From Candidatus Cloacimonadota bacterium (GTDB taxonomy: Bacteria > UBA4055), in contig PDON01000067.1 in NCBI GenBank assembly GCA_002742935.1, forward strand, positions 5,766 through 69,765: a DNA stretch of 64,000 nucleotides, given 5' to 3'. Positions 46,962-48,005 of the stretch are shown one piece after another. The notes beneath the pieces were generated by a model. That model saw only the letters and a list, made by a program, of their open reading frames with translations. It did not search any database and was not told where the DNA came from. Each line of letters opens with the position of its first letter. Position 1 is the stretch's first letter. The position numbers and the translations under genes were made by a program.

Positions 46962-48005
46962 CTACTTAATCATAACTGCTTTTCCTATTTTACTAAAACC
47001 TTCCGGTGTTGAAACTCTATAGTAGTACACCCCTGAAGAGAGAGAATTGTTACTATTATCTTTCCCATTCCACTCTATCCAGTGTTTCCCCGAAGATCTA
47101 TAATTATTGGATATTTCTCTTACTAATCTTCCTGATCTATTGAATATCTCTATCTTAACCTCTCCACTTTTTTCAAGACTGAAACCTATGTTGGTTCTAG
47201 GATTAAAAGGGTTTGGATAGTTTTGATACAACTCAATATTAGCTATAATGTTTTCTTCAATTCCAACTGATCCTATCATTCCATATCCTATGGCAGGAGA
47301 GTTTGGAAGTAAATTGAAATCAAAATTTTCAGGATCTTTAAACATAGGATCTTCACCTATTACATTGTTGTAAGGAGCCGAACCGGCTTCATCTTCCCAT
47401 GAAGAGGGAGCTGATCAACCGGTATCTCAAAGCTTACTAAAGTGAACGCTATAATCTTCCGGCGATTGAGTTTCCTGATAGCTCCAATTGTTTTCAATTG
47501 TAGGTAAGTTTGCATCTGAGTTAGAAAATGCCAAGTTTATTCCATCCGGAGAGTTACCGCTACCATCATCTATTCTTGTTTCAGACAAGATACAATTTTT
47601 TATAACCACATCCTCTCCGGTATTCTTGATCCTGATAGCGTAACCTTTTGAATTGTAAAATGTTACATTTTCAACGGTTCCAAAAGGTTTTTCGGAATCT
47701 TTTCCCTCAAACCATACAGAGCCGTTTGTTATTGCACAGTTGTAAATAGATAGTTCGCTAGAACTCCATTCGTCTGCTCTTATAGTTTCTCCTTGCAGAT
47801 CAATTACAGCTCCATTACCAATAATTTTTGTGGAAAAGCCTCCTAAATCTGTCAAGTTCAACCCTCCTGTGTAAATAACACCTTCTTCAAGTTCAACATA
47901 CTTATCATATCCGTTATTACTACCACTACTATTCCAAGCCTCTTCCAAAGATATTGGAAATAGTGATGTTAACAAGGCAGATAAGATTATTATTATACTT
48001 TTCAT
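46962..48005 (-). CDS. secreted beta-helix protein with C-terminal FlgD-Ig/T9SS-like sorting domain, containing two in-frame UGA codons (candidate Sec193 and Sec197)
   Basis: Track ORFs 47427..48005 and 46962..47345 share one frame (1044 nt). The linker reads SKL-TGA-D-T-G-TGA-SAPSSWEDEAGSAPYNNVIGEDP-MFKDP. Signal peptide at the N-terminus and YQNYPNPFNP...SSGVYYY at the C-terminus. Confidence 0.75.
47376..47404 (-). promoter_or_regulatory. candidate bacterial SECIS-like hairpins
   Basis: mRNA CUUCAU-GGGAAG-AUGAAG and AGCCG-GUU-CGGCU just 3' of the UGA pair. Both loops begin with G and the stretch is locally GC-rich. Confidence 0.5.

Follow-up and report, generated by a model that had tools for sequence, protein, structure and literature searches.

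Two in-frame UGA codons in a Candidatus Cloacimonadota gene are probably read as selenocysteine in an exported beta-helix protein

Can two UGA codons that stand four codons apart in one bacterial gene both be read as selenocysteine (Sec), or do they end its translation? The question is raised by a gene on the reverse strand at positions 46962-48005 of a 64,000-nt stretch of Candidatus (Ca.) Cloacimonadota DNA (contig PDON01000067.1), the whole of which we call the window. The frame, 347 codons followed by a TAG stop, is interrupted only by a TGA at codon 193 and a TGA at codon 197. With TGA written as U, the translation around them runs ...VHFSKL-U-DTG-U-SAPSSWEDEAGSAPYNNVIGEDPMFKDPENFDFNLLPNSPAIG..., and genetic code table 11 splits the frame into an open reading frame (ORF) of 192 aa (47427-48005) and one of 127 aa (46962-47345). 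An earlier reading made from the letters of the window (the sequence-only reading) had described two ORFs in one frame, broken by just these two codons, and our re-translation matched it exactly. Comparative analysis indicates that the gene is very probably a real selenoprotein gene, with both UGAs read as Sec and with the precursor of an exported beta-helix protein as its product; conserved columns, the Sec machinery and the order of the domains support the earlier proposal of such a protein with two Sec residues.

We searched 16 genomes of the phylum (a single family in the collection) in six frames with the N-terminal domain as query, reading stops through and counting them. The domain was found in 8 of the 16 genomes and in five of seven genera. 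Nine of the 13 matching rows carry two TGA codons, two carry one, and two carry none, the alignment in these last stopping short of the motif. With TGA as U, the motif is L-U-E-Y-G-U in most genera and L-U-D-T-G-U in the target. When the domain alignment was run against whole collections, 57 more loci came up, 27 in species genomes and 30 in metagenomes. The genome titles give Ca. Delongbacteria and Ca. Cloacimonadota (including Ca. Tenebribacter), and there are further metagenome-assembled genomes (MAGs) labelled Phycisphaerales, Planctomycetaceae, Kiritimatiellae, Eisenbacteria or just 'bacterium'. The family alignment joins 46 of these 57 wider loci to 10 of the 12 phylum loci and has 54 distinct rows. 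Genes cut by contig ends (L078, L079, L102, L107, L108, L110, L026 and L049), a record with a broken frame that occurs twice (L081 and L109) and repeats (L100, equal to L099 in the compared region; L077 and L080, equal to the genes of L026 and L049) were dropped. In the record with the broken frame, from a Cloacimonadota MAG, the frame is lost 5′ of the motif and a CEYGU motif lies in another frame; it is a frameshifted pseudogene, or else the assembly is wrong there.

The 54 rows comprise 29 CxxxU, 21 UxxxU and one CxxxC motif (L075), and three odd ones (U-x-U in L039; Cys-rich in L041 and L111). At 97% identity, 50 genes divide into 28 CxxxU, 18 UxxxU, one CxxxC and three odd, and at 70% identity 32 clusters divide into 13 CxxxU, 14 UxxxU, one mixed, one CxxxC and three odd. 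Column 193 holds TGA in 21 rows and Cys in 32 (the 29 CxxxU rows with L075, L041 and L111); column 197 holds TGA in 51 rows and Cys solely in L075. The residues aligned to 193 and 197, which the sequence-only reading had named as a check, are TGA or Cys (CxxxU, UxxxU, CxxxC) and in no case Trp, Arg or Gly. The frame stays conserved between the two codons and beyond them, with G196 in 51 rows, P200 in 53, and A207, N214, P220 and P225 in all 54; His188, five residues ahead of the first Sec/Cys, is present in 44. Chance is ruled out for the double TGA, since dozens of homologues at about 30-45% identity share both TGA columns. On the alignment, TGA/Cys columns together with in-frame conservation are the standard comparative signature of a selenoprotein.

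The family alignment has no conserved start codon 3′ of the TGAs: M221, the ATG that opens the 127-aa ORF, lies inside a conserved cap motif in a column that holds L, Q, I, E or F in homologues, and is therefore not a conserved start. Database proteins give the same picture from the other side. A profile search among proteins of near length returned six matches, three of which (P0005-P0007) are all-Cys paralogues that lack TGA and read C-x-x-C-GGGD at the motif site. Database ORF P0004 ends in ...C-E-S-G, exactly at the Sec codon, and is thus an annotated homologue of the kind anticipated earlier, one that stops right after a C-x-x-G. A single-sequence, word-indexed protein search had two TGA-truncated fragments as its sole matches, and a word-indexed profile search among longer database proteins gave no match, which is weak as negative evidence. 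The database search also recorded the identical 192-aa, TGA-terminated ORF from three contigs. One genome of 4.8 Mb (G004; L020, L039-L042) carries five paralogues, namely a UxxxU form, a U-x-U form (U-G-U), two CxxxU forms (C-E-T-G-U and C-D-E-G-U) and a TGA-free all-Cys form (C-C-E-S-C), a natural series for Sec/Cys exchange.

The source genome (2.63 Mb, 99 contigs, 94% complete, 31.4% GC) holds selA, selB, selC and selD, all four genes that the sequence-only reading had marked for a genome search. The matches score 528 bits for selA and 332 bits for selB; the tRNA-Sec reaches 60.1 bits (gathering score 47) and is called independently by ARAGORN as tRNA-SeC with the anticodon tca (UCA). The selD gene (340 bits; L001, C1:28192-29262, reverse strand) has one in-frame TGA at the canonical active-site position (...NVRAAG-U-AGKLSP...), and SelD of this genome is, judged by that position, itself a selenoprotein. 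Across the phylum, selA is present in 15 of 16 genomes, the lone miss being a genome that is 73% complete, and it is present in four of the five genomes behind other family loci. In G042, the genome behind the UxxxU-bearing locus L068, selB is found about 1 kb away from selD and is matched only up to position 273 of the 581-position model, perhaps because the rest of that selB falls in masked or missing sequence.

We took a census of stop codons over 1216 ATG-initiated ORFs of at least 250 aa. TAA ends 587 of them, TAG 562 and TGA 67 (5.5%), and the next in-frame stop after TGA-ended ORFs follows at a median of 4 codons and within 30 codons in 97%. TGA is a rare but ordinary terminator in this genome and is not reassigned; any readthrough must therefore be site-specific, as had been argued from the window. 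Every Trp codon in the counted ORFs is TGG, as it must be when ORFs are delimited at TGA. The close second stop behind TGA may be a backup against readthrough in an organism that decodes Sec.

Downstream of the two codons, the messenger can form a hairpin that resembles a selenocysteine insertion sequence (SECIS), with a 5-bp stem, a GUU triloop, one outer G-C pair and the core GCC-GGU-UCG-GC(U/A). In the 25 genes that share it (class A), 95.3% of cells are paired and changes occur on both sides in four of six pairs, with compensatory variants that include GCCA-GUU-UGGC, GCAA-GUC-UUGC and GCUG-GGA-CAGC. None of 500 column shuffles matched the observed pairing or covariation score, and controls in which the partner was slid by 1-3 columns paired in 33-53%. 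When synonymous codons were randomised, keeping the protein sequence and each gene's own codon usage, the distal hairpin gave a mean z of -1.61, with 12 of the 25 genes below -1.64, against 0.04 and -0.01 for flanking controls. Its codons are rare in the host (GCC, 12% of Ala; UCG, written TCG in the gene, 2.9% of Ser). By these comparisons, the distal hairpin shows synonymous-site selection, with compensatory changes.

Hairpins of other kinds occur elsewhere in the family. Cloacimonadota-type genes, which are mostly CxxxU, lack the GUU hairpin and have instead GCAGUC-AGUUG-GGCUGC about 12 nt after the UGA; 96.7% of cells are paired in 15 sequences, with compensatory changes in three of six pairs. 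A third group (10 'WPEA-type' and odd sequences) has hairpins of the type UGGCC-GGA-GGCCA, identified by eye in folds, and the folds of other TGA genes of the source genome contain short GC stems with G-initiated triloops about 13-35 nt after the UGA. An Rfam scan of 47250-47500 returned chance-level snoRNA and CRISPR rows only (E 1.5-8.3); Rfam has, to our knowledge, no general model for bacterial SECIS elements.

The encoded protein is complete only when both codons are read through. By inspection, its N-terminus has a basic residue followed by a hydrophobic stretch, AlphaFold2 (AF2) places a helix at residues 2-13, and all complete homologues have a comparable hydrophobic N-terminus. The AF2 model, built from an 11-sequence alignment, is a beta-helix with a predicted local distance difference test (pLDDT) score of 82.4 and a predicted template modelling score (pTM) of 0.83, and the Sec loop comes after the last predicted strand before the motif (residues 189-192). 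Foldseek returned 157 matches, weak ones to generic beta-helices; none had E ≤0.001, the best being PL6 alginate lyases (E 0.031, template modelling score 0.38-0.45, 10-15% identity), which leaves the protein outside the PL6 polysaccharide lyases at that threshold. The atlas neighbours of a natural Cys paralogue are generic beta-helix clusters. Both Pfam scores fall below their cut-offs (Beta_helix PF13229, 23.9 vs 25.9; DUF5123 PF17161, 29.4 vs 35.1), and the fold is a predicted beta-helix despite these scores. Against sequences in the Protein Data Bank, only the cap motif of the family profile matches, at the C-terminal end of 9rx2_A, a 'Parallel beta-helix repeat protein' (E 0.0045); this supports the earlier view that the motif closes the beta-helix.

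The C-terminal part carries a sorting domain of the type IX secretion system (T9SS), with 31.6 bits for Por_Secre_tail (PF18962), 32.6 for CHU_C and 43.7 for FlgD_ig (cut-off 27), and 32.3 for TIGR04183 (cut-off 23). A T9SS C-terminal domain lies 3′ of the TGAs in the target and in four of four phylum homologues. The secretion machinery is represented in the genome by SprA (525 bits, above cut-off) and by a PorU-like protein (416.8 bits vs 420, in a gene cut by a contig end). Only the readthrough product could be exported, because the anchor sits 3′ of the TGAs. Inspection, AF2 and the Pfam/TIGRFAM scores agree with the order read earlier from the window, with a putative signal peptide and the beta-helix before the TGAs and the sorting domain after them. 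Most relatives are about 700 aa long and have a second domain, which among 10 long forms scores above the PF13229 cut-off in 8; 8 of the 10 long homologues from other phyla have a T9SS-type tail, 7 of them above the curated cut-off. Two genes from MAGs labelled Phycisphaerales-like have no T9SS tail: L089 (1501-3546) has an Asp/Gly-rich repeat end that is dockerin-like by eye, and L055 (1501-3459) has no recognised anchor. The Sec-bearing N-domain thus appears to be paired with different C-terminal anchors across phyla.

Several observations weigh against a selenoprotein with Sec at both positions. (i) In the alignment, the rows are related, some closely; the target has no close orthologue (best match, 45% identity), deviates from the consensus with T at Y195 and M at the Cys of GYGC, and lacks the second beta-helix domain of the ~700-aa forms. 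(ii) In the genomes, selA was not detected in G042, where tRNA-Sec, a TGA-containing selD and selB are present. (iii) In the RNA, the covarying hairpin lies 38 nt (loop 43 nt) from UGA-1, beyond the range of roughly 16-37 nt in the published bacterial SECIS model; the Cloacimonadota-type hairpin is weak in the synonymous test (mean z -0.64); and single-sequence folding z-scores are unremarkable (-1.16 and -0.90). The proximal hairpin between the distal one and the UGAs has two invariant pairs only (RNAalifold) and a synonymous z of -0.8, with no clear difference between UxxxU (-0.89, n=17) and CxxxU genes (-0.59, n=8), and these three results do not support it as a dedicated SECIS for UGA-1. 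(iv) In the model, the Sec loop has a pLDDT of about 55-68, from which its geometry cannot be inferred. (v) Recoding efficiency in E. coli is reported to be 30-40% per UGA (PMC4513850), and if that value applies here, two UGAs would stop most ribosomes.

The alternative that survives best takes the UGAs mainly as terminators, so that the functional product is the 192-aa fragment and the full-length Sec form is minor or conditional, in effect a selenium-gated switch. TGA is a normal stop in the source genome, two serial UGAs would compound the inefficiency just quoted, and the hairpin is distant from UGA-1. The fragment, however, is left without the beta-helix cap and the T9SS sorting domain, the ~700-aa relatives keep about 450 residues in frame beyond the TGAs, and Cys in place of TGA in some paralogues implies that a residue is required there; we consider this alternative highly improbable. 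In many bacteria UGA is the stop codon most prone to leak, and the UGAs might accordingly be decoded as a standard residue (Trp, Cys, Arg or Gly), through near-cognate tRNAs or under a reassigned code, yet such decoding is harder still to reconcile with the data: TGA ends 67 of the 1216 long ORFs with a backup stop close behind, the residue aligned in homologues is Cys, a Sec signature, a covarying hairpin follows the UGAs, and the Sec machinery is complete, down to a Sec-containing SelD. Two stops 12 nt apart in a MAG assembly might point to a pseudogene that took two separate nonsense mutations (the version that the sequence-only reading had called less parsimonious), or to errors of assembly, but this scarcely credible reading is effectively refuted by the conservation of TGA in the same two columns across many independent assemblies and metagenomes at 30-45% identity, by the in-frame conservation downstream, by a hairpin kept with rare codons and by the recovery of an identical 192-aa ORF from three contigs.

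If both UGAs are indeed read as Sec, SelB and Sec-tRNA(Sec) would be recruited by the GC-rich stem-loop with its GUU triloop, which lies inside the gene 26 nt beyond the second UGA, and would insert Sec at positions 193 and 197. The resulting 347-aa precursor would comprise, in order, a signal peptide for the general secretory (Sec) translocon, a short right-handed beta-helix, the Sec loop, the cap and the T9SS sorting domain. The loop, H-F-x-x-L-U-x-x-G-U-x-x-P-x-x-W in the target and H-F-x-x-L-[U/C]-E-Y-G-U-x-x-P in the family form, is the best-conserved loop of the domain. With both a signal peptide and a T9SS sorting domain, the precursor would be exported by the translocon and then by T9SS, and the mature protein would reside at the cell surface or in the medium. 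A ribosome that stops at either UGA leaves a product lacking both cap and sorting signal, so that export of the full protein would be expected to hinge on the selenium available.

The functional centre would be the pair of U197 and U/C193, which is Sec/Cys in most relatives. By analogy, it is quite possible, at somewhat short of an even chance, that the pair forms a reversible diselenide or selenylsulfide redox site, which would take part, outside the cell, in a selenol/thiol network with the thioredoxin-like UxxC candidates that are exported alongside it and described below. A soft-metal site, possibly including His188, seems unlikely by the same kind of argument. Sco/SenC proteins have a CxxxC copper site in which two chalcogen residues and a His bind a soft metal, and the target has His188; fish SelL has a UxxU diselenide, a reversible bond between two chalcogen residues within one turn, as in the target. 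Both are thioredoxin-fold proteins, and homology of either to the target was not detected. It counts against a firm choice between redox and metal that the assignment relies on analogy and genomic co-occurrence, gene neighbourhoods being uninformative.

Two closely spaced Sec residues are known from other bacterial proteins. A May 2026 review (PMC13188914), whose Table 1 has 119 prokaryotic selenoprotein families or subfamilies, lists Prx-like UxxU, FmdB-family UxxU, a 'metal-binding protein' UxxU and the rhodanese/DsbD-like TsoB UxxxxU, which share with our family the interchange of Cys and Sec among homologues and a presumed redox or metal function; they are thioredoxin-fold, rhodanese or small metal-binding proteins, whereas the target has a spacing of three residues, a beta-helix and the features of T9SS cargo. 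Extracytoplasmic selenoproteins are listed there too (the TonB-dependent receptor FCYXU, MtrB/PioB-like, the ExtKL multihaem cytochrome, BtuF, SaoX/SaoB and DsbA/DsbG-like) and have in common with the target that Sec is exposed to the surroundings of an anaerobe, but none is described in that table as a T9SS substrate or a beta-helix (PMC13188914). T9SS beta-helix proteins (pectate-lyase-like/PL6, PF13229, DUF5123 and those with a 'choice-of-anchor Q' cap) share the predicted fold, the cap, a putative signal peptide and the type A C-terminal domain; the similarity is at the level of the fold only, and those families lack the Sec loop, the most conserved element of the target.

Searches for a described counterpart were negative. 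The N-domain had no match in NCBIfam (June 2026 release) at E≤1 for the target or at E≤0.1 for five other family members. None of the 119 entries in Table 1 of PMC13188914 is a beta-helix, T9SS cargo or a protein with a [C/U]xxxU motif. That review, the BSepDB paper and the deep-Sep paper contain neither the words 'helix' and 'secret' nor the phylum names in question; 'T9SS' is likewise absent from the BSepDB database paper, and 'helix', 'secret' and 'Cloacimon' from a 2022 review. Literature searches on selenoproteins in Cloacimonadota or Delongbacteria, or in connection with type IX secretion, returned nothing on the family, which supplementary candidate lists may include. The family is apparently an undescribed one within the bacterial Sec-UGA selenoproteins, in line with the statement of the sequence-only reading that no described family was recognised, and what makes it unusual is its fold, its route of export and the tandem UGAs, whose hairpin lies far off.

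The family does not stand alone in its genome. When the whole genome was screened for frames interrupted by TGA, 122 raw rows came up, most of them noise; the screen recovered selD and the target, the sole convincing case within the 64-kb window; four further rows of the target contig are antisense to longer ORFs or have the TGA 5′ of the real start. The same screen found at least seven further T9SS-tailed ORFs (275-603 aa) with one in-frame TGA each. In six of them the TGA lies in UxxC or UxxxC (U-G-S-M-C) inside thioredoxin/redoxin-like N-domains, two of which exceed the Pfam Thioredoxin cut-off, and phylum-wide matches to two of these N-domains have TGA in 28 of 30 and 30 of 31 cases. This set looks like an expanded family of T9SS-exported thioredoxin-fold selenoproteins, and bacteria of the phylum appear to export a set of selenoproteins, which gives a higher prior to extracellular redox chemistry of the beta-helix Sec pair. 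The link is circumstantial, as the beta-helix gene and the thioredoxin-like TGA genes are not adjacent, and one genome speaks against it: G014 (86% complete) has the beta-helix gene and no match to either of the two thioredoxin-like queries at E 1e-8. Two more T9SS-tailed ORFs contain an in-frame TGA, which may be a Sec codon, an error or the mark of a broken gene: L134 (C71:35344-37314; cyclophilin and Laminin_G_3) in FMIQDG-U-PNGDGT and L135 (C75:9823-12081; Cleaved_Adhesin) at codon 102.

The features of the gene and the seven exported candidates are collected in the table. Between a gene for RNase III and one for a PilT-like ATPase, the candidate selenoprotein gene stands alone on its strand. 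Its neighbours on the opposite strand (44714-46736 and 48679-50281) encode a beta-ketoacyl synthase, RNase III, a PilT-like T2SSE ATPase and glycine-cleavage protein H, and since these housekeeping neighbours run on the opposite strand, the gene has no operon partners. No conserved partner gene was found across ten compared loci, and synteny is limited to genera.

Table: Positions of the candidate selenoprotein gene and its elements in the window, and of further T9SS-tailed ORFs with an in-frame TGA on other contigs of the source genome
Feature	Position	Strand	Remarks
Full candidate selenoprotein gene	46962..48005	-	347 codons + TAG stop, two in-frame UGA; homologues collinear through both TGAs
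N-terminal signal peptide MKSIIIILSALLTSLFPISLEE (predicted)	47940..48005	-	about residues 1-22; by inspection
Right-handed beta-helix domain (predicted)	47430..47918	-	about residues 30-192; AF2 model, stacked short strands
UGA-1, putative Sec193	47427..47429	-	homologues have Sec or Cys
UGA-2, putative Sec197	47415..47417	-	TGA in 51 of 54 aligned rows
Proximal hairpin UCCC-UCUUCAU-GGGA	47395..47409	-	on conserved Pro and Trp codons; possible helper for UGA-1
SECIS-like hairpin G.AGCCG-GUU-CGGCU.C	47374..47390	-	encodes E-A-G-S-A-P; 26 nt 3′ of UGA-2, 38 nt 3′ of UGA-1
Beta-helix C-terminal cap motif NNVIGEDPMFKDPENFDFNLLPNSPAIGYG	47280..47369	-	residues 213-242; N214, P220, P225 invariant in 54 rows
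T9SS type A C-terminal sorting domain	46965..47219	-	residues 263-347; above curated cut-offs
T9SS-tailed TGA ORF L127	C51:16237-18048		tandem with L128
T9SS-tailed TGA ORF L128	C51:18233-20035		tandem with L127
T9SS-tailed TGA ORF L129	C53:59583-61136		
T9SS-tailed TGA ORF L130	C52:10904-12397		
T9SS-tailed TGA ORF L131	C55:10206-11033		
T9SS-tailed TGA ORF L132	C58:6076-6906		
T9SS-tailed TGA ORF L133	C47:18415-19923		

Selenoproteins are routinely mis-annotated as shortened ORFs, and for this family public databases hold TGA-terminated fragments only, while an all-Cys paralogue carries the label 'T9SS type A sorting domain-containing protein'. Recognition of the family would set right the gene models of two or more candidate phyla often found in anoxic sediments and digesters, and would add a non-thioredoxin fold, a [C/U]xxxU motif and a T9SS export route to the range of selenoproteins. 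Its tandem UGAs, with a hairpin 26 and 38 nt away, are a natural test of the reach and multiplicity of bacterial SECIS elements. Together with the secreted thioredoxin-like TGA genes, the family suggests that some anaerobes spend selenium on extracellular chemistry. A wider picture, which we put forward as conjecture and hold to be somewhat doubtful, is that anaerobes with T9SS, among them Ca. Delongbacteria, Ca. Cloacimonadota and their relatives, maintain an entire selenoproteome outside the cell. The beta-helix [C/U]xxxU protein and the expanded set of exported thioredoxin-fold UxxC proteins would then make up a surface system for selenol redox chemistry or the handling of chalcophile elements, its export gated by selenium and its tandem UGAs decoded with the aid of an unusually distant SECIS. 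If this is true, the targets could be disulfides or polysulfides, which the system would attack, or metals, which it would draw from a sulfidic environment.

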